This document shows positions 20,506-64,000 of a stretch of 64,000 bases of DNA, one piece after another; position 1 is the first letter of the stretch, and each line of letters opens with the position of its first letter. The notes under the pieces are model-generated. The model did no database searches and had not been told where the DNA came from. It saw only the letters and a list, made by a program, of their open reading frames with translations. Location of the stretch: assembly GCA_004431415.1 (NCBI GenBank), contig QPMI01000139.1, forward strand, positions 1 through 64,000, given 5' to 3'. This DNA is from Cyanophora paradoxa CCMP329. Lineage: Eukaryota > Plantae > Glaucophyta. The position numbers were made by a program, and so were the translations under genes.

Positions 20506-22430
20506 ATGTCCGCCGAGCCAGCGGAGGGTAGGCCCGCCCAGAGCGAGCCAGCGGAGGGTAGCGGCGTGATACCTGAGAGCTCTGGCAACGCGGACGCGTC
20601 GAAGCCTGTTGCCTTTCCGTCGTCTTTCATCGCCTCGATGGCCGCCGACCTACCCAGCGATCAGGCGATGGCCGAGTGTGACAGACTCTTCGCTCATGGT
20701 ACGTGCAAGCGCTACCGTAGTTGCCTGGAGCGTCGCTCAGGCGCCGTCCACGCAGGGGAAAGGTTGTACGCAAGCGGGGCGCAGAAGGACTACGAAGAAG
20801 CGAGAACCGTGTACCTCGTCCGCACCTTTGCAGAGCTCTGATCCGCGGAGCCGCTTCGTTGACCTCTTTGCGGCGCAGAGCGCGGTGGCGCTGGCCCGCA
20901 GCAAGGAGCTAGTGTGGCCTCTGCTGCCGCGGGCGATCTCGCGATTGGCGCGCGTATGCATGCACCTGGGGCGCTATGAGGAGGGCATGAAGTTTCTGCA
21001 GACGGAGAAGTTCATGCTGGACGCGCTCCTCGTGCGGGCAGTCGAGCAGCGCTCCAACCCGGCGCCCGGCTCCCCGCGCTCCCCCTCGGGCAGCTTCCGC
21101 GCCGCCGGCTCGCCGCGCTCGCGGGGGGCGGAGGGCGAGGGCGGGCCGCTGAGCCCGCATCGGCTGAAGAGCGGGAGCTTCGGGGCGCCGTACCGGGTGC
21201 CCCGGCTCGCGGACGACCAGGAGGCCTCGGGCGGCTCCCCCGCGAGCGCCTCGCCGAGGGCCTCCTCCCAGCCCGCCTCCCCGGGGCGCGCCCCCGCACC
21301 GGCGCCCTCCGTGGCCGTCACAGCCGCCGAGGGCGACGAGGCGGGGGAGGCGGTGGAGGCGGGCGCGGCCGGGGAGCAGGAGGAGGAGCAGGGGGCGGGG
21401 GTGACGCTGGCGCTGCCGCCGCGGCGGGGCAAGATGTCGGCGGCCTCGTCGCTGGTGGACGGGGCGAGCTCGCACACGGACCTCACCAGCGAGGTCAGCG
21501 AGGCCGGCAGCGAGGTCCCCAGCGAGGGCACGGGTCCGCCCCGCCCGCCCCGCCCCGCCCTTCCGGGCCGTCGCGCGGGGTGCGAGGGCGGGGCGGGGCG
21601 ACGGCAGAGTACGTGACTGCGATGGAGGAGAAGGCGGGGGCGTACGACAAGCTGGCGGAGATGTTCCTCTCGGACCGGCAGCACCAGCTCGCGTGGGAGT
21701 ACGCGCAGAAGGCGATGCGCATCCGCGAGGAGATCTGCCGCCACCCCGCCTGGCGCGGCGGCGAGGAGAAGGTCGAGACCATCGCCAAGGTCTACTTCGG
21801 CATCGGTACCCCCGCCCGCCCCGCCCCGGCCCCGGCCTGGCGCCCGGCGCGAGGCGGGGGGGTCGCAGGGGTGCAGAAGTACCAGGCAGCACTGCAGCGG
21901 TACCGCCGCTCGCGGTCGCAGATGGCGCGCCGTGCGCCGCCCGACGGCTCCCTCCCCGAGGGCGCCGACGGCGAGGAGGAGGAGGCCGCAGCCGAGGCCA
22001 GCTCCTACGCGCCCGAGGGCGAGGGCGACGGGGGGGCCGGGGAGGGCGGGGCCGGGGGGGAGGGCGGCGTGCGGCGGCGCGCGCGGGTCGCCTTCGCGAA
22101 GGGCGCGGAGGAGGAGGAGGAGGAGGAGGAGGAGGATGCGGGGCCGGAGGGGGCGGGGCGGCGCGGGAGCATGGAGAGCACGGGGGAGGAGGAGGAGGAG
22201 GAGGAGGCCGCCGAGGAGCGCCGCCGCGCCTCCATCCGCCGCTACCTCATCGTGCGCCCGTCCCCCGCCCGCCGCCCCCCCCGGCCTCGCGAGGGCGTGC
22301 GCTGAGGGGCGCGGGGCGGGCGCAGTGGGCGCTGGCGGCGGTCGTGGTGGGGACGGCCCTCGCCGTCTACCTCGCCTACAAGAAGACCCTCCGCCTCGTC
22401 GAAATCCACGGCGTACCCCTCCGCCCCTAG
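20506..22430 (+). CDS. TPR-like helical protein with acidic region and C-terminal TM anchor (weakly consortin-like)
   Basis: TPR-like helices (LPRAISRLARVCMHLGRYEEGMKFLQTEK; AYDKLAEMFLSDRQHQLAWEYAQKA). Terminal WALAAVVVGTALAVYLAYKK. Host-type introns. Confidence 0.6.
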
Positions 22431-22564
22431 CGCTAGCCCGCCCCCGCGCGCACCCGCCCCGCCCCCCCACGCCCCCGTCCCGTCTCCAAGCGCGCGGCAC
22501 GCTCGATTAGAAGAGAGAGGTTGGGGTCGGGGTGCGGGGGTGCGGGGCGGGGGCGGGGGCGGGC

Positions 22565-24291
22565 CTAGGTGCGGGGCGGGGGCAGGAGGCACATGGCGTC
22601 GCCGAAGGAGTAGAAGCGGTAGCGCTGCTCGAGGGCCTCCGCGTAGGTCGCGAGCAGCGCGCGGCGCCCCATCAGCGCCGACACCATCATCATCAGCGAG
22701 CTCTTCGGCAGGTGGAAGTTCGTCACTGCGCGCCGGTCGCTCACCGGGCGCCGGCGCGGGGCGGTCGGGGCGGTGGGGCGGGGCGGACCCATGCCCTGGA
22801 CGACGCGCCACTGGTAGCCCGGGTAGATGAAAATGGAGGTGCGCCCGAAGAAGGGCGCCAGCGGGGCGCTCCCCGCCACCCCCGCGCTCCCCGCCCGCGC
22901 CTCCGCCGCCTGCGCGGCGCCCTCGAGCGCCCGCGCCGCCGTCGTGCCCACCGCGATCACCCGCCCGCCCCGCGCCCGGCACGCCTCGATCGCCTCCACC
23001 GTCTGCGACGGCACGTGCACCCTGCGGCGAGGCGCGTGAGCGGGGCGGGGCGGGGGCGGGGCGGGGCGCGGGGCGCGCCGCTCGTCGTGCATGGCGTGCT
23101 GGGCGATGTGGGCCGCCTCGACGGGGCGGAAGGTGCCGAGGCCGACGTGGAGGGTGACGAAGGCGCGGGCGACGCCGGCGGCCTCCAGGCGCGCGAGCAG
23201 CTCCTCCGTGAAGTGCAGGCCCGCCGTCGGCGCCGCCGCCGACCCCGCCTCCTTCCCGTACACCGTCTGGTACTGCTCCTGCGCCCCAGCGCCTCGCCCC
23301 CGCCCCGCGAGCGGCGGCGGGGCGGGGACGGGGGCGGCGGACCCCGGCGGCGGTGCTCTGGGTGATGTACGGGGGCAGGGGCACCTTGCCGAGGCGCTCG
23401 AGGAGAGGCAGGAAGGGCTGCCCGGGGGGCAGCAGGAAGCGCAGCATGCGCCCGCCCGACGCCTCGTCCACCGACTCGATCTCCGCCGTCAGCGCCGGCT
23501 CCCCCGCACCCTCCGACTCTGCCCGTCCCGCCCCGTGTCGGGACCCCGGCCGGGGCGGGGCGGGGGGCGCACCGAAGAAGCCGACGCGGGCGCCGGGGCG
23601 GAGCCTGCGGCCGGGGCGGACGAGGGCGAGCCAGAGGTTCTTCTCGCGCTCCTCCAGCAGCAGCACCTCGCAGTGCGCCCCCTCCGCCGCTACCGCCCCG
23701 CCCCCTCGCCACAGCGCCCCGCGACCCTCGCGGCGCGCGCACCGGGGTCGGTCCTGCGGGCGGGCTGGGAGCCCGGGGCCGGGGGCAGCTTGCGGCCGTA
23801 GAGGCGGGCGGGGACGACGCGGGTGTCGTTCATGACGAGGAGGTCGCCGGGGCGGAGCAGCTCGGGCAGCTCGCGGAAGACGCGGTGCGCGAAGTGCGCC
23901 TCGCCGCCCCCGCCCCGCAGCGCCCCGTCCCGCCGCACGGCCCCCAGGTCGATCGCGAAGAGCCGCGAGGTGTCCCGCGGCACCGCCGGGTTCTGCGCGA
24001 TCCGCTCCTCCGGCAAGACGTAGTCGTAGCTCGACAGGTGCATATCCTCCTCCTCCTGCCGCACCGGCGGCGCCCCCAGCGGCGCCGCGCTCGACATGCG
24101 CGCAGCGCCCGGGCGATCAAGCGCCGCGGGCCTCCTCGCCGGCCTGCTCGCCGCCGCCTCGGATCTCGACGCGATCAGCGCTGAGCTGGCGCTGCCGGCG
24201 GCGAACGGTCGGGTCAGGCGGCGCGCGCCGGCCGCCGCTCCGTCGCTCGTAGTGGGAGGTAGCGCGTTCGACAGGAGGAAGGCGGCCGCAT
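22565..24291 (-). CDS. queA: S-adenosylmethionine:tRNA ribosyltransferase-isomerase (queuosine synthesis); start approximate
   Basis: [26 protein letters not shown]; [13 protein letters not shown]; PLPPYI; [10 protein letters not shown]; [12 protein letters not shown]; AVGTT; [10 protein letters not shown]; [10 protein letters not shown]. Intron-containing. Confidence 0.95.
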
Positions 24292-40047: not shown

Positions 40048-40171
40048 TTGATAGTAAAGTAGTTTACTTAGGTCAACCCGCGAGTAGACGTAGAGCAGCT
40101 GTACCCGAGGCACGACTGCCCGCCCCTCTTCAGTTGTTGTACCCCGAGTGCGCCGTCGCGCCTCGAGCTCT
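40048..40171 (+). repeat. Split direct repeat A1
   Basis: Matches 45862-45984 except for one homopolymer C. Confidence 0.95.
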
Positions 40172-40196
40172 GCAGAGCGTTCCGGCCGTACGCAAC

Positions 40197-42190
40197 ATGG
40201 TTGTCGAGACCCGTGGCCGCACGGCCACTCGCGCAGCCTCGGAGGCGGGACCATCGCGGTTCCAGAGTGCACCTCCCGACCCGCGCCAACCGGAGGCGCC
40301 AGCAGCTACACCGGTAGCTACAGCGGTAGGAGATGCGGGCTCGCAGCTGCAGACGACCTCAGATCTGCAGCCGCCCGTCGGGATCGCCCCTGCGCCAGGG
40401 CTCGCCTCGCACTCCGCGCAGGCCGAGCAGCAGCATCCCGGCGGCCCCGCCGCTCCTCCTGCGTCGACAGCGAGGCTGCTGCAGCAGACTTCGCACGCGG
40501 CTGCCGCCCCCCCCGCACCCGCGGGCGGGGGTTCCGCGGCCGCGCCGTCGACCCCGGCATCCGGATCCGCGCCGCCTCAGCCCGCCCCCGTGCTCGCACC
40601 TCGCATGCCGGAGGCCCGAGCTTCGCGCGCGCCGCCGGCGGGACCCCTCGCAGTCCTGCCCGGCCCCGGATCGCCGGCCCCCGTGGTGGATCTGTCACAG
40701 CTCGGCCCGATGCTGACCCAGCAGCTCGCGGCGAGCGTGCAGCAGGCGACCGCCTCAGCGGTCGCGGCAGCGGTTGCTCCCCTGACGCGCGACCTCAGCG
40801 CCCTCGTGAGCGCCGTCGACCAGCAGCGCATGGTGCTGGCGCAGCACCAGAGCCTGCTCGAGCACGCGCAGCGGCCCGCCCCAGCCCAGGTCACGCACCT
40901 GCCGCTCGAGGCCCCTGCCCGCTGCCGGCCCCGGCACCCCCGCCGGCGCGGCCCTGTCCCACCACGTCCCCACGGCGACCGCCGCCGTCCCTGGTGCTGT
41001 ATTCGTCCCGCGGAGCGCACCGTCCCGCCCCTTCGTGCACGGCGCCGCCGCCGACCCGCCGCCCACATCGCAGACCGATGTCGATATCTCTCAGGCGGTG
41101 TCGCAGGCACTGGCGCGCGCCCTGCCGGCGGCGCTCGCAGGGGCCGGCTTCGCGTTCGGGGTGCCGGCGCTGCGCCCCCTCGACCGACGGGAGCGCTCGC
41201 GTCAGCACCCTTCCCGCGCGCATCTTCACAGGCCCGGCCGGTGAGCGCCTCGTAGCGGCGATTCGGGCGGGGGGGCCTTTCGAGCTCCGTAGGCTCTTTC
41301 TAGACCCCGTCTTCTCCCCCTCCGCCACCCAGTCGGGCCTCGCGTCCTCCGCCGCGGACGCCATCGCGGTGTCCCTCGACCCCGTCTCGGGCCGGCTGGT
41401 CCTCCAGGCGCACTCCGCCTCGTCCAGCACCGGCACACAGCGCGAGCAGCTCGCCTTCCCCGACCTCCTCCTGTGCCTTCAGCTCCTCGCCTTCCAGATC
41501 TCCACGGACACCATGCTGCCGGCGGAGGAGCGCTGCCGCCGCCTCGAGGCCCTGTCCCGGCTGCAGTACGAGATCATCGTCCTTGCCCGCACGCTTCCGT
41601 GGGAGCGGGTCTTCCCGTGGGTGCAGCATCACCTTGCTGACGCCCTCGCCTGCGCCGAGGACGCCGACGGCCGGTACCGCGCCCTTGGCCACCACAGCAT
41701 GGCTCTCCTCGCGCGCAGCCTGCCCGAGGGGGGGCTCGGGCTCGGGGGCCCCCTCCCCTTTCACGCCGGCAGCATCGTGGCCTCGGCCGCCGCCGTCGAT
41801 GCAGCCGCCCGTCCGGCCGGCGGCGGCCGGGCGTCGCGCTCCAGCGCCGCGGCGCGCCCCGCCGCGGCCTCGGCGGTCGCCGCGCTCGCGTCCCCGCCCG
41901 GCACCGCGCCCAGCGGCGACACTCGGGCCGCCTCCGGCTCCGGCCGCTCGCGGTCCCGGGCCGTGCAGGATGCCCTCGACCGTGGCGCCGTCTGGCACAC
42001 CGAGGACCCGCGCTACTTCGGCGTCAGCCCAGCCATCTGTTGGTGCTTCAACCAGGGCATCTGCAAGAACGCCGTCAGCGACGGCGTCTGCTTCTTCGGG
42101 CGCCACATCTGTGCCCAGTGCCACAGCCGGGACCACCCCGACTGCGCGCGCCGTACCGCCACCGGCGCCGGCGCCGTCGGCCCTTCCTGA
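40197..42190 (+). CDS. Gag-like ORF1 of the retrotransposon (frameshifted in this sequence)
   Basis: Ends in Cys/His finger ICWCFNQGIC..CFFGRHICAQCHSRDH, typical of YR-retrotransposon ORF1. Pieces lie in frames 40134 and 40148. Confidence 0.75.
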
Positions 42191-42534
42191 GCACCCCCCG
42201 CAGGCGGCCGCAGTTCCCGCTCCCTGCGGCGCGCCAGACGCGGAGCATCATAGGAGCCCTCCGGAGGCGGTGGCGCCCCCTCTGGCGGCAGCGGTGCGCC
42301 CATCGCCGCCGTCCCCGCCTCCGCCCCCTTCGGTCTCGGTCGCGGCCCTCCCGCGGCTAAGTCCGATCGCCCCCCCCTCGGCATCTTCCCCCCGGGCTTC
42401 GCCCGTCCAGGCACCCGGTTTTGTACCGGCGTCCGCTGTCCCGGGCCGTTGCGTCCGGCGGCCTAGCGGACAGGACGTCGTGTCTGTTGTCTCCGAGACC
42501 CGCAGTTCGAGTCCGACCGGGTCCACTTCCGCCG

Positions 42535-42745
42535 CTTCGATTCCGGAGAGGCGCGCTTCCACGGCGACCGCCGTCGACCCCCCCCACGACCCGCGCTCGA
42601 TTCCCGCCGGGTCCTCTTTCGCTGCTTCGGCTCCGGAGCGGCCCGTTTCCACAGCGACCGCCGGCGCCGCCGCCCACGCTCCCGACCCGCGCTCGATTCC
42701 CGCCGGGTCCTCTTTCGCCTCTTCGACTCCGGAGCGGCCCACTTC
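42535..42745 (+). repeat. ~96-bp tandem duplication in the pol N-terminal linker
   Basis: CGACCCGCGCTCGATTCCCGCCGGGTCCTCTTTCGC at 42587 and 42683. Confidence 0.8.
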
Positions 42746-42904
42746 CGCAGTCGCTGACGCCGCCGCGCCCGCGGGCACGCGCGCCCGCGCGCACACGCGC
42801 ATCCGCAAGCAACCGCTGGCCCCCCTTTCGACACGACTGTCCCGACCTACCCCACGAGTGCTGTCGGCGGCGCCCCGCTCCCGTCGGGACTGGCGCCCAC
42901 GCCG

Positions 42905-44532
42905 GTGCACCTCCCCAACCTTCTGGCCGCGCTGGCCGACCATCCAGACCCCACGCTCGCTACCCGCCTGGCCCAGGGCTTCACCCGCGGCTTCCCTCTG
43001 CTCTACCGCGGGCCGCCTTACTCGGCGGTCCACAGGCCCCATCCCACGGCGCTGGAACATCTCGACGCCGTGCGGGCGGACGTCGCCAAGGAGCGGGCGG
43101 CGGGACGCATGGCCGGCCCTTTCCCGCATCCGCCCTTCGCCCCCTTCGTCGCCTCGCCACTCGGCGCCGTGCCGAAGAAGCGCTCCAACCCACCCAAGTG
43201 GCGGCGCATCACAGACCTATCCTATCCCCGGTTTCGCGGCTTCAGCGTCAACCGCGGCATCGACAATGCTCCCCTTCACTACACCTCCCCTTCGGTGGCA
43301 GACGCGATCGAGCTCATCATCTCCCTGGGCCGGCTCACGCAGCTGGGCAAGGCCGACGTGCGGGACGCCTTCCGCCTCCTGCCGGTCCGCCCGGAGGACT
43401 ACTGGCTGCTGGGTGCCGCCTCCCCTCCGAGGATCCCGCCCGCCCCGGCGCGTACGACTTCTACTACGACATGGCTCTCCATTCGGTGGCCGCTCCTCCC
43501 GCGCACGTTCGAGGACCTCGGTCAGGCCCTCGACCACGCCCTCCGTCGGGGGGGCGTCCTCTTCCTGCGCTACGTCGATGACATCCTCGTGCTCGGGCGC
43601 CCCGGCACTGCCGAGTGTGCACGGTCGATGGAGGCCCTCCAGGCCATCTGCTCCCACCTGGGCATCCCGCTGGCTGCGGAGAAGCTGGAGGGGCCCGCCT
43701 TCCGCCTCGTCTTCCTCGGCATCGAGCTCGACACCGACGCGATGGAGGCGCGCCTCTCGGCCGGCCGCTACGAGGACCTCGTCTCGCTCCTCGGCAGCTG
43801 GGAGGGAAAGCGGCACGCCACCCGGCATGACCTCCAGTCCCTCGCCGGTCTCCTCACCTCCGCCACCGCCGTCATTCCCCCCGGCCGCTTCTTCCTCCAG
43901 CGCGTGCTGAGTCTCATCTCTGCCCTGCGCGAGGACCACCACCGTGCCACGCTCCACCCCGGCTTCCACGCAGACCTCCGTTGGTGGCGCTTCCTGCTTG
44001 CCGAGCGGCACGGCGTCCGCCTCCTCCCGCCTCAGCCCGCTGGGCCGACTCGCGGGAGCTACGCCTGGAGACTGATGCCAGCGGCGTGGGCTTTGGCGCC
44101 GTCTTTGGCGACGCCTGGCTCTTCGGCGCCTGGGCCGACCACCCCGACATCCCTGCCAGCATGCCCTGGCGCGAGCTCATGGCGATCGTCATCGCCGCCG
44201 CCACGTGGGGCCCCCAGTGGCACCGCCGGCGGATTAACTTCCACACTGACTGCGAGCCGGTTGCCCTTGCCATTGCCAACGGCTACTCCCCCCGCCCCGG
44301 CTTCGCCACCCTCCTCCGCACCCTCTATGCCCTTTCCGTCCTCCACTCTTTCGAGTTTCGCGCCACGCACATCGCTGGCCTGTCTAACGTCCTGGCCGAC
44401 CCCCTCTCCCGCCTCCAGATCGAGCAGTTCCGCCGACTGCACCGGTCAGCGGATTCTTTGCCGACCCCCGCCTGCTGGCCGTCGATCGACCCCTTGCCGC
44501 CCTCGCCACGCACCTCTACATGTCCGGCTTAG
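42905..44532 (+). CDS. Reverse transcriptase-RNase H (frameshifted)
   Basis: SPLGAVPKK, KWRRITDLS, KADVRDAFRLLPV, YVDD (43571), FLGIELDT. RNase H: TDASGVGFGA, RELMAI, FHTDC, HIAGLSNVLADPLSR. Confidence 0.93.
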
Positions 44533-45502
44533 CGGCCAGCACCCGCAGGAGCTACTCGTACCCGCAGCGCGAGTTCATCGAGTTCTGCCTCCAGCGGGGT
44601 CTGCACGACAGGCAGGGCTCGGTCCTGCCGGCGTCGGAGGCTACACTCTGCTTCTTCGCGGCGCACCTCTTCCGCCGTGGCGGCGTCGCCCCGCCATCCA
44701 TCCGCACGTACATCACGGCCGTGCAGTCGCTGCACGTCGACTCCGGCTTCAGCACTTTCTGGGGCTCCATGCCGCGCCTCGCCCGGCTCCTCGAGGGCAT
44801 CGCCCGCGTGGCCGACCCTCGCCCCAAACTCTGCCGCGACCCGATCACGCGCGGACAGCTCAGTGACCTCGCCCAGTATGCAGCCGCCCACCCGTCACCT
44901 GAGACGCGGCTCCTCTGGGCCGCCTTTTCCACCGCCTTCTTCGGCTTCTTCCGCTGCAGCGAGGTCTGTGCTGTCCGCCTCCCTGTGCCCGACCCGGCCC
45001 GGCTCTTCCAGCGCCGCGACCTCCGCTTCTTCACGGACGAGGGCGAGAGCTTCGCCGCCTCCGCCTGAAGAAGTCGAAGACCGATCAGCGAGGCCAGGGC
45101 TGTGACGTCGACATTCCCCATGTCGGCGGCCTGGAGTGCGCTCACTGCGCCCTCGAGGCCCTCGCCCTCTCCTGGACGGGCCCCGCCCGCCCTGACGCCT
45201 ACATCTTCGCACATGCCGCCACCGGCCAGCGCTGACCCGTTCGGAGCTGCATGCCGCCCTCCGCAACTGGCTCCACGCCTCGGCTACGCAGCCGACCCCT
45301 GCTGCCGCACAGCTTCCGCATCGGCGCCGCCACCGCGGCGTTCGAGGCCGGCCTCCCTGACTACGCTATCCAGCTCCTCGGCCGCTGGCGGTCCGACGCT
45401 TTCCAGCTGTACATCCGTGCGCGCCCCGAGCTCGTCCGCCGCCAGCGGGGCCTCCTCCTCGCCAGCAGCCACGCGCCCCCAGCCGCAGTGCCCTCCAGCT
45501 GA
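44520..45502 (+). CDS. Tyrosine recombinase (frameshifted)
   Basis: AFFGFFRCSEV; LKKSKTDQ in a shifted frame; HSFRIGAATAAFEAG..IQLLGRWRSDAFQLYIR. Confidence 0.93.
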
Positions 45503-45572
45503 CCTTCATTCATCACACACCTCTCTCCATGGGTGCCAGCGCGCGGCGCCCACTTCGCAGCCGCCGCCGCCT

Positions 45573-46304
45573 CGGCGCCTTGGTCCTGCCTCTCCCCTGC
45601 TTCGCGTACCCTAGGCCAGACTGCCGTACCCAGGACAGGTGTTGCGAACTAGCCTAGTTCACGTACCCCTCTGCCTGCTACGGACTCTAGCCAGTTTCAC
45701 GCTCAGGATTTTCACAGGCCCGAGGCAGTCCCCTTCTTGGCACCCATTTCGAGTTGTGTATGCATATACTAGATTAGCATATGACCATGCTAGCGACGCA
45801 GAGCTCACAGCACTGCGGGGAGTGTACCCTCTATTGCTAAGAGTAAACTCGCTAGGGTTGATTGATAGTAAAGTAGTTTACTTAGGTCAACCCGCGAGTA
45901 GACGTAGAGCAGCTGTACCCGAGGCACGACTGCCCGCCCCTCTTCAGTTGTTGTACCCGAGTGCGCCGTCGCGCCTCGAGCTCTCCCACCCGACCCTACC
46001 CTATGTATACGGCGCCTTGGTCCTGCCTCTCCCCTGCTTCGCGTACCCTAGGCCAGACTGCCGTACCCAGGACAGGTGTTGCGAACTAGCCCTAGTTCAC
46101 GTACCCCTCTGCCTGCTACGGACTCTAGCCCAGTTTCACGCTCAGGATTTTCACAGGCCCGAGGCAGTCCCCTTCTTGGCACCCATTTCGAGTTGTGTAT
46201 GCATATACTAGATTAGCATATGACCATGCTAGCGACGCAGAGCTCACAGCACTGCGGGGAGTGTACCCCTCTATTGCTAAGAGTAAACTCGCTAGGGTTG
46301 ATTG
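45573..46304 (+). repeat. Right-end split repeats B1 (45573-45864), A2 (45862-45984), B2 (46010-46304)
   Basis: B1 and B2 are identical apart from three single-C indels in C runs. Confidence 0.95.
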
Positions 46305-53890: not shown

Positions 53891-54398
53891 TCTAGGCAAG
53901 ACCTCGGATCGCGCTACCAGTATCTGGCGGCATCACACCTTCGTCTTGGGTGCCGATGCCTCCTTCGATTTCGCCCCGAGATGAGAGGAGAGAGCAAGCA
54001 GACTGGGCGCTCTGGCAAAGCCGAAGTAGGAGGGACTCACCTTCGGGCCCCGGGTTCCCCTGCGTGCACATGCCTACAGCACCGCGATCGAGGCCCGCGA
54101 CAGCGCCGCCCGTGCGTCTCCGATTGTATTTCCTCACTTTCTGAGGCCGCCGGGCGATGGAAGGCTAATTTATCGAGGGATCGGCGCAGGTTTCGCGCGC
54201 GTCGATTCCCGTCATCGAGATAAGACTGCTTGCGGACCCAGAGTGGCCTAGGGCGCAACCGCACACGCGCTTTCCCCCCGCGGCCCGCACAGCACGCGAT
54301 CTGCCAACCCACGAGAGATTGTTTGGCGCTTTAGCACCAATGACGAGAGAGATCTAGCTACCTAATGTCACTGAGCTAGCAGCTAGCAGGCAGGCTCT

Positions 54399-56282
54399 CT
54401 AGTCGGTGAACGTAATGGGGCGGGGGCCGCTGGAGGAGGGGGGGCTTGCGGGCCTAGAGGAGGGCGTCTGCGCGGCGAAGTCGCTGAAGAGGGTGGCGCC
54501 GAGGGCGCGGACCACGGAGGGCGGGGCGGAGATGAGGGCGGGCCGCTCCGCCTCCTCGTGGCAGGTGGCCTCGCCGAAGGCGGGGGGCGGCTGCGAGAAG
54601 GCGACGACGGCGTGCGGCTCGTGCGTCGGCGTCTGCGTGCCCCGCGAGACCCGCTCCACGCTCCGCACGGGCGTCGAGGGCCCGTCCGGCGTGTACGGCA
54701 CCGGAGCGCTCGTCGGGAGGGACGCCGCCACGTGCTGCGACGGGTCCGACGCCGCCGTCGGCGAGAGCGGCGGCGGTGGCGGCGAGACCGCCACGTCGCC
54801 GCCTGCCGCGGCCGCCGGCGGCGTGCTGGGCCTGGACCCCGAGCCGCCGTGGCCGTGTGCGTGGCCGTGCGCGTGGCCGTGCCCTGCGCGCCGCTCGGGA
54901 CGGCAGGCGGGGGGCGCGCCGGCGGGGCGCACCGTGGTGCCCGTGGCCGTGCCCGTGCCCGTGGTGCCCGTGCCCTGCGAGCCGCTCCGGTCGCCGCGAG
55001 GTGCACTGCGCTGCGACGGGACGCACCGTGGTGGTGGCCGTGCGTGGCGGGGTGCTGCGGGGGGGAGTGCGAGCGCGGCGGGGGCGGGTGCAGGAGCTTG
55101 TGGGCCTCCTTCAGCACGTAGTCCCACTGGAAGGCCGGGCCCGGGTCGTTCTTCTCCGCCTGGATGTGGTAGTGGCCCAGCACGCCCTTGAACGCCGCGA
55201 GCTCGGCGTCGGGAAGCTTCCGCGGGAGCGGCTTCCCGCTCGCGGCGTCGCGCGGGCACTCTAGCCGGATCTGAGGCAGGATCGCCGAGAGCGCCGCCGT
55301 GAGCCGGATGAGCGCGTTGTACTGCGCGCAGGGCCCGGCGGTGAGATGCGGCGCAATCGCCGGGAAAATGCAGCGACGGCGAGGACCTGCTGCTGCGTGT
55401 AATCGTACTGCCGGTACTTGCGCCCCTGCAGTTCGTCCACGATCATGTGCGGTCGCACGGGATGCCCGATGAAGTTCTTCGTCTTGATGCCCCCGCCCCG
55501 CGCCTCGGGCGGCACCACGATCCGCGTCCGGCTTCCCTCGCGCTTGTACCAGCGATCGAACTTGTCCTTCTCGTCCTCTAAGTACGCTGACGAAAACGAA
55601 GAGGGCAGATTAGTGGGTAGTCTGTAAAGCGACAGCAGGTGAGGGCTGTGGGCGCACCTCCGACGTTGGCAATCTCGATTCCGACGGATCGATCGTTGGA
55701 GATGGTAGCATGCCAGCCGCGCTCCTTCAGATCTAACGTCTGATAGATGGTGCCATCAAGATCCAATAGGAAGTGGCAGCTCAACCCTCGCCGGTCCTGC
55801 AGGACCTGCAGGCGAATTGGATCGGCCGCGAGCAGGCAGCGAGCGGCGGAGACCGCGGGGAACCTCGAAGCAGCGCTGGCTGAGGCCACAAGCGTCGCAG
55901 TGAATGACGAACTGATCCACGACGCGCCGCAGCTGCTCCAAGGTCCAGCCCCCGCCGCGAACCTGTTCGACCTCGGCGGCCGAAAGCTTGGGGCTGCGGC
56001 GCATGCCGTAACGGTTCGGAGTTTTAAGCTCCCGCGATATACTGTCCCACTCCGAGCTCTCCAGCGGCCCGAAGCTGAGATGAGGGCGCTCAGGGCGCTT
56101 TCGAGCGCGCGAGATGCGGTCCACTGGGGGTCGCACCGGCGCTCCACGCGATATGCATCGTAGCCGCCCGGATCCATGAAGGTGTAGACGCGCACGCCCC
56201 CGCCCAAGCGGAAGAGCTGGCCGCACACAACGATCTCATCGCCGTGCCTCGGCACCGGCTGCCCAGGACGATCGTCCGCCAT
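54399..56282 (-). CDS. N-acetylmuramoyl-L-alanine amidase (Amidase_2) with low-complexity His/Pro-rich tail
   Basis: QFVIHCD, LSCHFLLDLDGTIYQTLDLKERGWHATISNDRSVGIEIAN, QYNALIRL, VLGHYHIQAEKNDPGPAFQW. Short host-type introns. Confidence 0.9.
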
Positions 56283-56843: not shown

Positions 56844-57750
56844 TTAGAAGCCCTGGAAGGCCTTCTTCGCCTGGCCGCCAGTCGAGCCCGCCTTCGGGAT
56901 GACCTTCAGGACATTGAAGCGGACGGTCTTCGACAGGGGCCGGCACTGGCCGACGATCACGGTGTCACCGGGGCTGCGAAAGACATAAAGGTTACTTCCT
57001 TTCGACGGTCATCCAGTAGGGCAAGGGCGGGTCGCGGGCTAGACGGAGCAGGTAGGAGTGCGCGGCAGGCGAAACGCAGAGCATGCGGGCGCACTTGACG
57101 ATGAACGCCGGAGAGCAGTGCGCGGGGAAGTTCTTGTGGCGCTTCTCATAACGGTTGTACTTCGGGATGAAGTGCATGTAGTCGCGGCGCACGACCAGGG
57201 TGCGCTTCATCTTGGTCGACTGCACGACGCCCTGGAGGATACGGCCGCGGATGCTGACATTGCCAGTGAACGGGCACTTCTTGTCGATGTAAGAGCCTGC
57301 GCACACAAGCCCGCAGGTCAGCGGAAGCTTCTTAGGTCGGCGATCGATGGCTCTGTTGCGCTGGTAAGACGGCATCGCTGCTCGGGCGAGCGGAGGGGCG
57401 AGCCGCATAGAAGAGCTTCGACCGCAAACTAGACTGGAGCTGCACCCGATGGCGCCTTCTGTTCGCCGGCGGCTACCTCGCCCGCTGCTGGCTCGAGCGC
57501 GAGCGGCCGCCGGCTCCCGCAGACGCGTCCGCTCCGCGATCGCGCCGTCCGGTCTAGCTTCTAAGCTACTGCGAAGCGCACCCTCGATCGCCTCGCGCGG
57601 AGTCTTGAAGCCGAGGCCGATGTTGCGGTAGTAGCGCGGGACCTTGCCGCTCGGGCCGCCCTTCTTGGCCAGAAGGCGCTTGGAGCCAATGAAGATGGCG
57701 TCCTGCTTCTGGAAGGCCCTCTCGACCTGCTGGACTTCGGCCGTCGACAT
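56844..57750 (-). CDS. RPS11: 40S ribosomal protein S11 (uS17), 3 coding exons
   Basis: [70 protein letters not shown]. Confidence 0.98.
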
Positions 57751-57930
57751 TTTCCCCTGCGCAGCCGCAAGCGGCGCCAAAAGGTGCACAATGAGCACAA
57801 AATCTCGAGTCCCAAAGCGGGAAGCGCCTCTGGTGGCTATATCGGCTGGCGTTCTTTGGCGGACGGACCTGTGTTACTGCCGGGTCCCGACCGCGTACGG
57901 GTACCGCTGTTCAAAAAAACTCGAACTTCG

Positions 57931-58795
57931 CATCGAACTACATCAAGCTCGGGCGCGCGCTTCCCCAGCGCAGGGAGGAGGCACTAGCTGCGCGCCTTCC
58001 CCGGCCTCCTTGCTCGCTCGCCCCCGCCCCGCAGCAACTCGTTCGACGAGCGTGTTGTTTTCCATGAGCTTTGCATGAGGGCGGCAAGAGGTGCGCTAAT
58101 TAGCTTTAGTTAGCGATGCTGTGTGCTAAACTGGCTGTCTCAACGTTCCCGCAGCTGGCGCCGGCCTTGCCTGACCGCTCGACCGATGATCAACAGCTCG
58201 CCGGTACTCGCCTACCTTCCAAGCGTGAGCTCTAGCTCTCGTGAGCATGAACTTAGCATTGAACTACATCAAGCTCGGGCGCGCGCTTCCCCACCACAGG
58301 GAGGAGGCACTAGCTGCGCGCCTTCGAATTCCCCCGGGGCATCGCGTCTTGCCTGCTCCCGGCCTCCCTGCTCGCTCGCCCCCGCCCGGCAGCAACTCGT
58401 CCGACGAGCGTGTTGTTCTCCATGAGCTTTGCATGAAAGCGGCAAGAGGTGCGCTAATTAGCTTTAGTTAGCGATGCTGTGTGCTAAACTGGCTGTCTCA
58501 ACGTTCCCGCAGCTGGCGCCGGCCTTGCCTGACCGCTCGACCGATGACTAACAGCTCGCCGGTACTCGCCTACCTTCCAAGCGTGAGCTCTAGCTCTCGT
58601 GAGCATGAACTTAGCATTGAATTACATCAAGCTCGGGCGCGCACTTCCCCACCACAGGGAGGAGGCACTAGCTGCGCGCCTTCGAATTCCCCCGGGGCAT
58701 CGCGTCTTGCCTGCTCCCGGCCTCCCTGCTCGCTCGCCCCCGCCCGGCAGCAACTCGTCCGACGAGCTTATAGCTTATTGTTCTCCATGAGCTTT
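57931..58795. repeat. Tandem repeat, ~358-bp unit, ~2.4 copies
   Basis: GAACTACATCAAGCTCGGGCGCGC.. at ~57935, 58261 and 58619. Duplicate ORFs at 58123/58481 give a period of 358. Confidence 0.9.
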
Positions 58796-59315
58796 AGGAG
58801 TGGGCGCACCATTGGGCGCTCGCGCACGGCGCGGGCAATGTCCTGCAGATCTCTCGGAGCTAGCGCTGGAGGCGAACAAGCGGGAACATGAGCTCGAGGA
58901 GCGGGAGGCGAAGACACGCAAGCTGGCCCAGTGGCGCCGTACGTGAGCGGGAGGTGAAGACACGCAAGCTGGCGCCGTACGCGTCGCCTGCCTTCCTAGC
59001 GTTAGCTCTAGGGCCTAGCGCTAGCTCCAGGGCCGATATCATTATATAATTAATTTAAGTTTACTGTACATATGCATGTGCATGTAACTGTTTTACGCAG
59101 CCCATGTGTACGCAGCTCTCCGATGGTCACCGCGCGCGGCCGTCGTCTTGCAGTTGTCTTGTCGACTTCGATATCATGAAGCTTATATAGGAGGGCCATC
59201 AATGGGCCAAACGCGAAAAGGCAACTCCGAGAGCTCGAGACTCGGAAGTGACGCTTGGATTGCGGAGGTTCTTATAACCGCCGCAACAGCTGTGGGGGTA
59301 CCCCCTCCGAGGCTG

Positions 59316-59425
59316 GCGATCGCGGCGATCGCGACCCGATCGCGACCCTGGTGATCGCGACTTTCTCCCGATCGCGACCCTTTTCGATCGCGATTTCGAG
59401 ATCGGGGGCATTTCTGCGATCGCGA
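59316..59425. repeat. Cluster of seven GATCGCG motifs
   Basis: Copies at ~59318, 59327, 59338, 59353, 59370, 59386 and 59418. Confidence 0.9.
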
Positions 59426-59552
59426 GAAAGGAAAAATCGGAAAAGGCCGAAAAGTGCGTTTTTCACGCGTGAAATCGACCGAAAACGAGGGTTCGAATCC
59501 CGGGCCCGGATTTGGACTTGGGCAAAATCTCGGACTGAAATGGGAGAAAAAT

Positions 59553-59634
59553 GGGACCTGGGACTTGGGACTTGGGACTTGGGACTTGGGACTTGGGACT
59601 TGGGAAGAGTTGGAATCAGAGTCTGGACTCAAAA
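59553..59634 (+). repeat. (GGGACTT)n module 1
   Basis: GGGACCT + 6 x GGGACTT + GGGAAGAGTT tail. Confidence 0.95.
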
Positions 59635-59660
59635 CGGGGAAATTTTCGGAGGGGAGAAAA

Positions 59661-60131
59661 ATGTCAGGCAATCTCTATTACGATTTCCCCTTTGAGTTGC
59701 ATATGGCATTCGAGAGGCTGCGCGAGTTCTGGCGTTGGCACCTCACAGGACATGACATTCCCGACATAACACCAGAGCCCAACACACAGGGCGTGCTTGA
59801 AGTCATCCGTCAATATCCGCGTCGATTCAATGAATGGATCGAGTTCCACGCAACGAACCGTTTCCAGAGTCTCCCCGAGGCCATACGCGAAAATTTCGTG
59901 AGGCTGGTGGGACCAGGCTACGACAACCCTAACAATCATAGACCACGCCCAGCTGGCGTGACGCGCGAAGCTCGAGAAGACCGTAGACTTTTCCGCAGGG
60001 AATTGAGAGAGGATAGACGGAGGCTTTCAATGGGGCTCCCGCAGATTGTGAGGGGGTACAGCCCGGATTACGAGACTTACCAAGAATTGTACGGCTTCGA
60101 AAATCCCTTTGAGAGGGTACTACCAGGGTGA
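59661..60131 (+). CDS. Hypothetical protein, 156 aa (element-borne)
   Basis: Intronless ORF MSGNLYYDFPFEL.. with AAAAATG start context and a normal globular composition. Confidence 0.65.
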   Translation: MSGNLYYDFPFELHMAFERLREFWRWHLTGHDIPDITPEPNTQGVLEVIRQYPRRFNEWIEFHATNRFQSLPEAIRENFVRLVGPGYDNPNNHRPRPAGVTREAREDRRLFRRELREDRRRLSMGLPQIVRGYSPDYETYQELYGFENPFERVLPG

Positions 60132-60469
60132 GGGGCCAGGGGGGGCCCCTGAGGGTGTACCCCCCATCCGAGACTCGACCTTCGGCGGACGCACTCGGGC
60201 AATTTCCGTCAGGCCGGCTCCTTTTTCTGTCTTCGGTCCAACGCTAAATTTGGCTTTTTCAGGCCAGTTGGCAACGTTTTCCGTTGCGAACTAGCCCAGG
60301 AAAAAATTCGCCCACAAAACCGCGGTCCGCCGCCATTTTGCCTCACTCTTGAAACGGGTTCGCCGCCTTCTCTCAGCCCAAGGAAACCCTGCCTCTCCGA
60401 ATTTTCACAAGTCCGCCCTCACAGTCACCTCACGTTTTGCCTTTGCTGATTTCTTTTCCCTTTGCGCAG

Positions 60470-61536
60470 ATGTCGATTCCCGCTGAGCTTGCCGAGGACT
60501 TCGCCTTTGTCCAAGCAACGTGGGCTAACTCCGGTGGCACTCAAGGGGCTACCCCTGAGATGGAGCAGCGCGCCGACGCTCTGGGGTACATCTACAATTA
60601 TGCCATCTTACGCGCCACTGGCCCCGAAGTGCAACTTCTCCCCAAGTCCGCCTTCACGTCCAAGGCCAAGAAATCCAAGTCCAAGCAACCCAAGCCCGAG
60701 CCCCCGTCGACGTGCCCCCGTCCCCGGCTGGGTCAAGACCGCCAACGGCTGGGGCGACCCCAAGCTTTTCGCCGAGTCTGCTGCCGAGACGCTCGCCTGG
60801 GCCTACCCCCTCAAGTCTTCACGAATTACCCCCTCCGTCATCGTCGTCATCTGCCCCTCAGCCCGTCGCCGAGCCCGCCCCCGAGCCCGCCGATGACGCC
60901 AAGTCCGAGGCCTCTGACGTCGAGTCTGACATCAACGACTTCATCGACTTTGACGTGCCGATTCCATACGACTCTGAGTCGTCTTCTGACTCTGAAGGCG
61001 ACAACGAAAACCCGACTCGCAAGCGCCGCATTATCAAGACCAAGTCAATCGTCAAGAAGAAGTTCATGGAGACTACGTCATTCACCGACAACTCCGAGCG
61101 CGTCAAGGACCCCGCCAAGGCACACGAGAAGGACTTGAAGCTCGGCGCCGGCATTGCCCGTTCTCGCGTGACGTCACACTACAGCGAGCGCCTGACTCAG
61201 CACGTCAAGACCATTGAGAAGCGCGTCCTCTGCAACGAGCTCCGCAAGGAGTTGGAGCGCAAGCGGCGCCACGAGCGCCTTGTCCAGTACCAGATCAACA
61301 AGGCGCGGATCGCCGAGCGCAAGCAGAAGGAGGCGGCCGAGCTCAAGGCGCGCATCGAGGCTCAGCAGCAGCGCGAGGCAGAGGCGGCAGCGGCCTTGGC
61401 GGCGCAGCGCGAGCGCGAGCGGCAGGACTTGGTGCAGGCAGCGCAGTCCCTTCCCCGCATTCCCCTTAAGTCGGCGCCCGAGGGCCTCATTGAGTTGGTT
61501 TCCGATGACGATGACTCTGACTTTGAGATGCTGTAA
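60470..61536 (+). CDS. Hypothetical protein with acidic tract, basic NLS-like segment and coiled coil (two apparent frameshifts)
   Basis: MSIPAELAEDFAF.. (frame 60437) continues into DDAKSEASDVESD..RKRRIIK..ELRKELERKRR..DDDDSDFEML* (frame 60712). Confidence 0.65.
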
Positions 61537-61607
61537 ATAGTATTGCGTCATTCCATTGTACATACTTGTAAAAATTGGCCGACTATTCAGTTACGACTTG
61601 GCGCGAT

Positions 61608-61725
61608 CCTGGGACTTGGGACTTGGACTTGGGACTTGGGACTTGGGACTTGGGACTTGGGAAGAGTTAGACTCAGGGTCTGGGCCCAGAATCTCTCTGG
61701 ATCTGAGAGTTTGCCGCGCCAAGTC
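61608..61725 (+). repeat. (GGGACTT)n module 2
   Basis: CCT + 7 units + GGGAAGAGTTAGACTCAGGGTCTGGGCCCAGA..CAAGTC. Confidence 0.95.
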
Positions 61726-61951
61726 CCTAACCACCGGGCAGACATGTAGAGGGGTACGGAAATCTGCATATGACGTTTCTGGTGACATTCCAGGTGAGAT
61801 TTCAAGCGAGGTAGAGTCTGAACTGGTGTACGACTTGTAGCATGATACTGGACATGAAAGCTCACGAGAGTATGCAACCGAAAACGGATGTGAAGAGGGG
61901 TAGGAGTTTTCGTGTGAGATGTCGAGAGAAGGAGGGTACGAGATGGGATAC

Positions 61952-62021
61952 GAGTAAAAAGACTACGAGTAAAAAAGACTACGAGTAAAAAAGAGTATGA
62001 GGAGTGGTAGGAGTAAAAAAG
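61952..62021 (+). repeat. GAGTAAAAAAGACTAC-type short tandem repeat
   Basis: Three tandem copies plus one spaced GAGTAAAAAAG. Confidence 0.85.
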
Positions 62022-62040
62022 TCGGTAGAAAAACTCACCT

Positions 62041-62176
62041 GACTTGTCTGACAAATTTCTGATCCTGGAGAAAGTCTGGGCCGGGACCTGGGTTTCAACT
62101 CTTCCCAAGTCCCAAGTCCCAAGTCCAAGTCCCAAGTCCCAAGTCCCAAGTCCCAAGTCCAAGTCCAAGTCCCAGG
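62041..62176 (-). repeat. (GGGACTT)n module 3, inverted relative to modules 1 and 2
   Basis: About 10 AAGTCC(C) units preceded by AACTCTTCCC and the reverse complement of the conserved tail. Confidence 0.95.
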
Positions 62177-62197
62177 TTTTTCTGAACCTAGGGCAAA

Positions 62198-62514
62198 ATG
62201 GCCCTGCTCCGGTGCACCGACTCGCAAGACGTCGCCTACAACGTCCTGGTCAACTCGGACGTACCCCGAGTGCCTTGGAGTTTCCCTGGAGAGTGGACAG
62301 GGACAGGGTGAGCAAGACGTTTGGAGGGCGCAAGCACTACCTCTCCCAGCTGATCCTCGGGAAGTCGCCACGTGGACGCTACGTGGAACACATCAACGGC
62401 AACCCGCTGGACTACAGGAGGGAGAACCTGCGCTGGGCATCAATGTCGGAGATTCGCAAGAAGAGGAGGGGTACGCCAATTTACAGGAGAAGAGCGAGGA
62501 GATTCGGGAGATGA
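62198..62514 (+). CDS. Small phage-type HNH endonuclease-like protein (one frameshift near 62270)
   Basis: YLSQLILG..YVEHINGNPLDYRRENLRWAS. ATG in GCAAAATG context. Confidence 0.75.
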
Positions 62515-62550
62515 TGGAGGCGACACAGGTGCTAATGCAGCTTAGCCAGT

Positions 62551-63363
62551 CTAGACGCTAGTGGTGTGAATCTTGGTGTCGTACTCGCGACCGACCGTTT
62601 CCCAGGCCACGTAAACTTCGGCTCCGGCGCCTGGCGCTGTCGAGTTGGTAGTCGCAGTCGTGTAGTCCGCCTCTGCCTCAATTAGTTCGGCCATGAGGGT
62701 AGAGCCCACGACCATTCCAGAGGTAGGCATTCCGGCGATGTTGTTGTACAATTTGAAAGTGAATTTCGTGAAGAGGAGCCGGGGCCAGACCTGGGTACGG
62801 GGATTCGAGGCGCCGTATGAATAATCGGTACCCGAGGCGCCGCCCGTGGTGGCATTCGTCATCATCTCCTTTGCGGTCATCTTCCAGAGGTTGTACATCT
62901 CAAAGGGAACGGCCTGCGTGGTCTTGTGTGTGGCATCGATGAGGGCGCCATCTAAATGCGTTTTGATGTTCGGATTCGCACCATTCCCGAATTTGCGAGT
63001 GAGGGCGGTGTTAGCGGTGAACTTGAGTTCGAGCACGCGAATGGCGGGCCGATCAGGCACAGAGGGCTCTATCTTTTTCAGGAGGCCCGAGAGCCAGAGC
63101 GCCTCCGCCTCATCCGCGCTCACGCCCGAGTCGATGTCAAAGTACACGTACACGGAGCAGGAGGCGGGATTCTCGAAATCGTTGGAGGTGACGCGCAACA
63201 TGACGGGATTCTGGACCCTCACGGTGAGCGGGGTGGCGTAGTTTCCGTCCCACTCCACCTTGTCCGTCCCTGCGTTGGCCACGTTCCCAGCGTTGCCGTA
63301 GAAATCGGGGACGATCGAGCCGGCAGACACGGTCTTCACGATGGTGGCCGAGGTGGTCGGCAT
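62551..63363 (-). CDS. Hypothetical 270-aa beta-rich protein, possibly a virion structural protein (paralog A)
   Basis: Intact intronless ORF, Thr/Asn/Gly-rich, GCAAAATG start. Colinear similarity to the upstream ORF. Confidence 0.75.
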   Translation of the reverse strand: MPTTSATIVKTVSAGSIVPDFYGNAGNVANAGTDKVEWDGNYATPLTVRVQNPVMLRVTSNDFENPASCSVYVYFDIDSGVSADEAEALWLSGLLKKIEPSVPDRPAIRVLELKFTANTALTRKFGNGANPNIKTHLDGALIDATHKTTQAVPFEMYNLWKMTAKEMMTNATTGGASGTDYSYGASNPRTQVWPRLLFTKFTFKLYNNIAGMPTSGMVVGSTLMAELIEAEADYTTATTNSTAPGAGAEVYVAWETVGREYDTKIHTTSV

Positions 63364-63386
63364 TTTGCGACCTCAAATGAGAAAGA

Positions 63387-64000
63387 TTATCCGTGAAAGA
63401 GGGTGATGTCGCCACCGATGTTCATGACGCGGGCCCCAGGCACAGAGTCAGCGTCGGTGCCGTACGCGTAGGAAATCGAGCACTCACGCAGCTCCGCGCA
63501 GAGGCTGGCGCCCGTGCTGAAGTGGGGCTGGTCGGCGGCGTAGGAGAGGGGGAAGACCTGGAACCTGAAAAAGGTGAAGGGGAAGCGGGGTAGAGTCGAG
63601 CCGCGTGGGTTGCCGCCCGTGTAGAGGGCCCCAGGGTCGCGGGACTTGGATTGAATTTCGTGAAGAGCACGTCGCCCTTGAGCGTACCCCTCATCTGGTA
63701 AGTTCCCGTACCCGGAAGATTCGAAGAACTGGGGTACCGGTTCACGGTGGGGCCGTACCCCGTCTCCCTGAACTTGACCTCGAGACAGCGCAAGACGTTG
63801 GCAGTGGCCGTGGCAGGTGCCACCTTTTTCACGAGTCCTGATTCGTGCAGCAGCTCGATAACCTCTGCGCTGAGGCTCAGAGGGTCGAAGAAGAGCTGGT
63901 AGGAATAAATCTTGGGCGTGGCGTAGGCGTTCTGAACGACCTGAATCACGACGGGATTCTGCAGAAAGACGTCGACGTAACTGCCGGAGGGTATGCGTGC
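63387..64000 (-). CDS. Paralog B of the 270-aa protein (5' truncated by the window; one frameshift near 63660)
   Basis: LQNPVVIQV..SGLVKKVAP..RCLEVKF, then in the shifted frame YTGGNPRGSTLPRFPFTFFRFQVF..GASLCAELRECSISY..ITLFHG*. Confidence 0.7.
   Translation of the reverse strand, partial: THTLRQLRRRLSAESRRDSGRSERLRHAQDLFLPALLRPSEPQRRGYRAAARIRTREKGGTCHGHCQRLALSRGQVQGDGVRPHREPVPQFFESSGYGNLPDEGYAQGRRALHEIQSKSRDPGALYTGGNPRGSTLPRFPFTFFRFQVFPLSYAADQPHFSTGASLCAELRECSISYAYGTDADSVPGARVMNIGGDITLFHG

Follow-up and report, generated by a model that had tools for sequence, protein, structure and literature searches.

An orphan pair of tandem paralogous genes in a multi-copy, likely viral element of the glaucophyte Cyanophora paradoxa

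Glaucophyte viruses are known almost only via capsid-gene counts. For the alga Cyanophora paradoxa, the available parts of the respective sources report 366 capsid hits, in two groups of 272 and 94 that by column count sit under the iterative hidden Markov model (HMM) heading (PMC10120064), giant-virus inserts and methylated viral genes (PMC12344493), and adintovirus-like genes on its contigs (PMC8502044). Here we describe two adjacent genes, A and B, from a lower-GC multi-copy element whose left part lies in a 64,000-nucleotide stretch of C. paradoxa CCMP329 (contig QPMI01000139.1, positions 1 to 64,000; henceforth the window; Table 1). The element is a compositionally distinct insertion in a protist genome (found on 36 contigs; GC 0.50-0.59 from about 59 kb as against 0.70-0.76 in 1-57800), and with its multi-copy, gene-dense organization, HNH endonuclease gene, and repeat arrays it resembles the endogenous Polinton-like viruses (PLVs) and virophages of protists. 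It differs from these in that the window contains no capsid, ATPase, or integrase gene and neither end, making its membership putative, and in the A/B gene pair itself, which is not described for them in the available text of PMC10120064. Cyanophora is likewise unmentioned in the accessible portions of 10.64898/2026.10.13.758929 and PMC11071308, and a literature search recovered no paper on the pair. The element is likely an endogenous DNA virus of C. paradoxa and its class is probably a known one, while the A/B proteins constitute a new orphan family not described in the searchable literature.

Gene B lies upstream of gene A on the same strand, with its stop codon 23 nt before the start of A and its first 22 codons beyond the window end. 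A prior reading made from the nucleotide sequence alone (the sequence-only reading) had proposed that this region codes for tandem, colinear paralogs of a beta-rich protein of unlisted kind, derived from an old duplication, and the motif pairs that it quoted (VQNPVMLRV/LQNPVVIQV, SGLLKKIEP/SGLVKKVAP, and IRVLELKF/LRCLEVKF) are all present. A tblastn search with A against 63364-64000 aligned its residues 48-115 (27/68 identical, E 1e-10) and, in a second frame, its C-terminal part (E 6e-10; both E-values calculated for the 637-nt subject), the two segments being colinear. Compared with three B proteins that are intact in other copies of the element, the A protein scores 161-197 (z 25-32), far above the maximum of 55-65 reached by 1000 shuffles each, and alignment of the A and B profiles with HHalign yields a probability of 98.5% (E 2.6e-15, 170 columns). 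As the intact B proteins of other copies give these z-scores and this profile match, with a pairwise identity of 25-34% between the two clades, the paralogy of A and B is beyond doubt, and an old tandem duplication is supported, as is the beta-rich core.

A protein identical to A sits in a cluster of EukProt gene models from C. paradoxa; EukProt models account for 12 of the 14 matches to A, and all cluster members that bear a name come from this alga. Counting only the named models, with their numbers entered by hand, A occurs on 33 contigs and B is present on 18, making 36 different contigs altogether; A is listed for 15 of the 18 contigs with B, and in each of these 15 the two genes bear consecutive numbers. 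The B-then-A order is thus fixed, and the two genes form a conserved tandem pair in a multi-copy element. Homologs of A from sources other than the C. paradoxa EukProt models are P0008 and P0012 (59-60% identity). An HMMER search of 1.84 billion representatives recovered 12 proteins, namely 11 family members and one repeat artefact, and added P0078 and P0079, which are 37-43% identical to B and fall on the B side of the starred branch separating A from B (in a tree of 17 rows with long branches). Two proteins were excluded from the tree and alignments: P0081, rejected as a low-complexity repeat protein, and P0080, left out as a fragment of A. The further paralogs that the sequence-only reading had considered possible did not materialize: neither the 24 matches nor the 12 HMMER matches include a third clade. 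Several EukProt models from these copies (P0001, P0014, P0015, P0018, P0024, and P0027) bridge frameshifts by false introns and fuse B to A. Since predictors treat the element in this way, public proteomes carry many chimeric or shortened A/B forms.

The second gene had also been described as hidden by a frameshift. A change of frame is indeed present at 63628-63632, but it is probably not biological. In Logan contigs assembled from public sequencing runs (4 of the 24 listed, aligned on 62200-64000), one extra base at 63628 is found in all depth of both DNA runs (X3, 3186.5/3186.5; X10, 6309.9/6309.9). Given this extra base at full depth, the location of the change in a four-base homopolymer, an assembly made from PacBio RSII reads with Canu (according to the available text of PMC6704402), and the intact 226-aa B proteins encoded in many other copies, the break is likely a long-read assembly error. 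That B at this locus is instead a decayed pseudogene appears quite unlikely to us: it would fit the many broken gene models of other copies, and a deletion confined to this one locus would escape notice in the Logan contigs, in which copies are merged and rare variants dropped; on the other hand, a similar one-base difference occurs at 62467, within the HNH gene. Hence, where a long-read assembly shows broken genes in multi-copy viral inserts, the breaks can be errors, and elements of this kind may be less damaged than their sequences suggest. No run recorded as RNA is among those listed; one run guessed to be from RNA has a single 989-nt contig across 62372-63359 and another run has none, which says nothing firm about expression.

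Neither A nor B has a match in Pfam, PHROGs, or the PDB sequences, and Rfam also yielded none. Pattern scans of viral contigs, metagenome contigs, and prokaryote genomes recovered no relatives or related loci, and the phages furnished a single match at E 6. No cellular enzyme was matched. The family is, as far as sequence comparison reaches, an orphan without annotated relative.

Structure prediction offers a lead. Both models fold as a barrel, at low confidence, and in five fold searches with the two models the T7-type oligonucleotide/oligosaccharide-binding (OB) folds that bind single-stranded DNA (ssDNA) ranked at or near the top, the best matches forming one coherent subfamily across two aligners and two libraries. 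These are the ssDNA-binding proteins (SSBs) of the T7 gp2.5 type, viz., T7 gp2.5, Enc34 ORF6/DUF2815, PF24083, ASFV CP312R, and gamadvirus PEV_26, with which A and B would share, if the low-confidence models hold, a barrel and a helix that immediately follows the second core strand (83-91 after strand 68-75 in both models; only 9 residues, with pLDDT about 50-60). Such SSBs occur in small eukaryotic DNA viruses; T7-like versions are known in gamadviruses and giant viruses, as per the available text of PMC11253617. The models suggest that A and B are ssDNA-binding proteins rather than capsid parts, and our leading, albeit still tentative, proposal is that they are T7 gp2.5-like OB-fold proteins coating ssDNA in the likely endogenous virus. 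Several observations weigh against it. Beyond the low confidence of the models, the best Z-score falls inside the range that unmatched models also reach, and the composition and ESM features keep a virion role alive. The acidic C-terminal tail of these SSBs is absent: all 10 of the 10 A/B proteins have 2-4 D/E in their last 30 residues, as compared to averages of 8.2 and 15.5 for two sets of SSBs. The similarity to DUF2815 or PF24083 is not above that of shuffles, in a test of low power where SSB families compared with each other score only 14.0 (E 0.22) and 22.6 (E 0.009). A and B further differ from the T7 gp2.5-type SSBs in their long T/A/G-rich insertions and fixed pairing of paralogs. Because the tail test failed, we do not class them as members of the SSB family; they would at best be SSB-like in action. 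By eye and in the HHalign output, local motifs of A/B resemble those of PF24083 or DUF2815; this likeness does not exceed that of shuffled sequences, and we do not count it as support.

The sequence-only reading had instead taken the family for virion structural subunits (capsid, penton, or filament), a view so far unsupported by the fold searches, none of which gave a jelly roll with any weight (this does not by itself exclude one). We consider it rather unlikely, though a serious contender, that A and B form a pair of single-jelly-roll proteins acting as minor capsid, penton, or cement subunits. Their T/A/G/S/N-rich, low-charge composition resembles that of the phage protein Bbp16, which we take to be a jelly-roll cement protein; their ESM features match phage hypothetical clusters at 0.94 (204/256 features) and Bbp16-carrying clusters at 0.87-0.91 (the family being on 21-37% of members), but 4-10 of 100 shuffled proteins also attain an ESM score of 0.9, and HHalign against 71 Bbp16 relatives remains at background (11.9; 16/60 shuffles as high). 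The strict tandem order also suits paired subunits, and some Trimcap B PLVs have two penton copies (available text of 10.64898/2026.06.19.733378), offering a parallel in two related beta-rich genes of a small DNA virus. Unlike these minor capsid genes or Bbp16, A and B find no jelly-roll match by structure or profile: both low-confidence models are barrels, and where Foldseek lists capsid-like rows, their probability is just 0.02-0.04.

The OB-fold models, virion-like composition, and strict pairing would be reconciled if a glaucophyte virus lineage had duplicated a T7-type ssDNA-binding fold, lost its acidic tail, and employed A and B together, as a heterodimer, to coat DNA in the virion core or nucleocapsid, a scenario that we regard as decidedly improbable. 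It is also unlikely, if less so, that the fold is unrelated to either lead or that A and B belong, as accessory genes, to a non-viral transposon-like repeat, with the OB-fold matches being artefacts of weak models. The lack of sequence matches in Pfam, PHROG, and PDB, a best Z-score inside the unmatched range, and the absence of viral hallmark genes from the visible ~5 kb of the element would all accord with this, as would the unknown repeats making up 11.5% of this genome (available text of PMC6704402); against this stand the coherence of the top-ranking subfamily, the HNH gene, low GC, and compact layout that suit a virus, and divergent homologs at 37-66% identity, which point to long conservation.

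Under the SSB-like proposal, the element would be a Polinton-like or related virus, and A and B, perhaps as a heterodimer, would bind the single strands displaced during its replication. The T7 protein gp2.5 recruits a polymerase or helicase, whereas A and B, which have no acidic tail, would not; their DNA binding may be less selective, which is plausible because the Enc34 SSB without its tail binds double-stranded DNA. The pair represents a conserved, intact two-subunit module with no annotated relative, in a widespread element of a cultivable alga. Were A and B SSB-like, a small eukaryotic DNA virus would possess a T7-type SSB that is duplicated and tail-less; were they structural, they would make up a virion protein family so far unrecognized. 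Both options are directly testable.

Table 1. Coordinates of the element and its features in the window
Feature	Position	Strand	Remarks
Left part of lower-GC multi-copy element	59000..64000	.	Exact left end not defined; extends past window
Three arrays of a 7-bp unit	59552..62174	.	About 59.55-59.61 kb and 61610-61662 in one direction; 62103-62174 inverted
Orphan ORF	59661..60131	+	156 aa; no Pfam match; exact sequence not in searched protein collection
Orphan gene	60471..61536	+	Divided between two frames in window; low-complexity middle (acidic and basic), coiled-coil-like end
HNH endonuclease gene	62199..62561	+	Converges on A; Pfam HNH_3 E 5.5e-8, above cut-off; appears frameshifted in window
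Gene A	62551..63363	-	Single intact open frame, 270 codons; orphan beta-rich protein
Gene B	63387..64000	-	Paralog of A; runs past window end; 226 aa in other copies
Apparent frameshift in B	63628..63632	.	Short homopolymer, one base fewer than in short-read contigs

Regarding the rest of the element, its left end is not sharp, since the best single GC change point in 50-64 kb falls earlier, at 55.5 kb. Short self-complementary repeats with a 32-bp period cluster at 59300-59430, just inside the likely left end, and a 358-bp unit is repeated in about 2.5 tandem copies (97% matches) at 57923-58806, directly left of the element. The orphan gene at 60471..61536 has no Pfam match above the cut-off. 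In the HNH gene, X10 and X15 differ from the window by one base at 62467, and one divergent X10 contig does so at 62267. The 7-bp arrays at 61610-61662 and 62103-62174 make up an 88-nt inverted repeat with a 370-nt spacer, and in another copy the gene model P0024 extends from A into the same array and its flank. The region 61662-62103 looks non-coding, is purine-rich on the plus strand with a 16-bp repeat, and has a CpG observed/expected ratio of 0.56 as against about 1.06 elsewhere; it might serve as an origin or represent a small nested element.

The window is eukaryotic, as indicated by a ribosomal S17-family gene in two pieces (56992-57798). A retroelement-like block at 40134-46000 includes an open reading frame (42905-44866) with a weak RVT_1 match (E 2.6e-4, below the cut-off), in a layout that presumably recalls a tyrosine-recombinase (DIRS-type) retrotransposon. 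The glaucophyte plastid retains a peptidoglycan wall, and the minus strand carries a gene for an N-acetylmuramoyl-L-alanine amidase (54383-56282; Pfam Amidase_2, E 2.7e-12), as well as a fragment of a QueA-like queuosine biosynthesis gene (22242-23666; Pfam E 2e-7).
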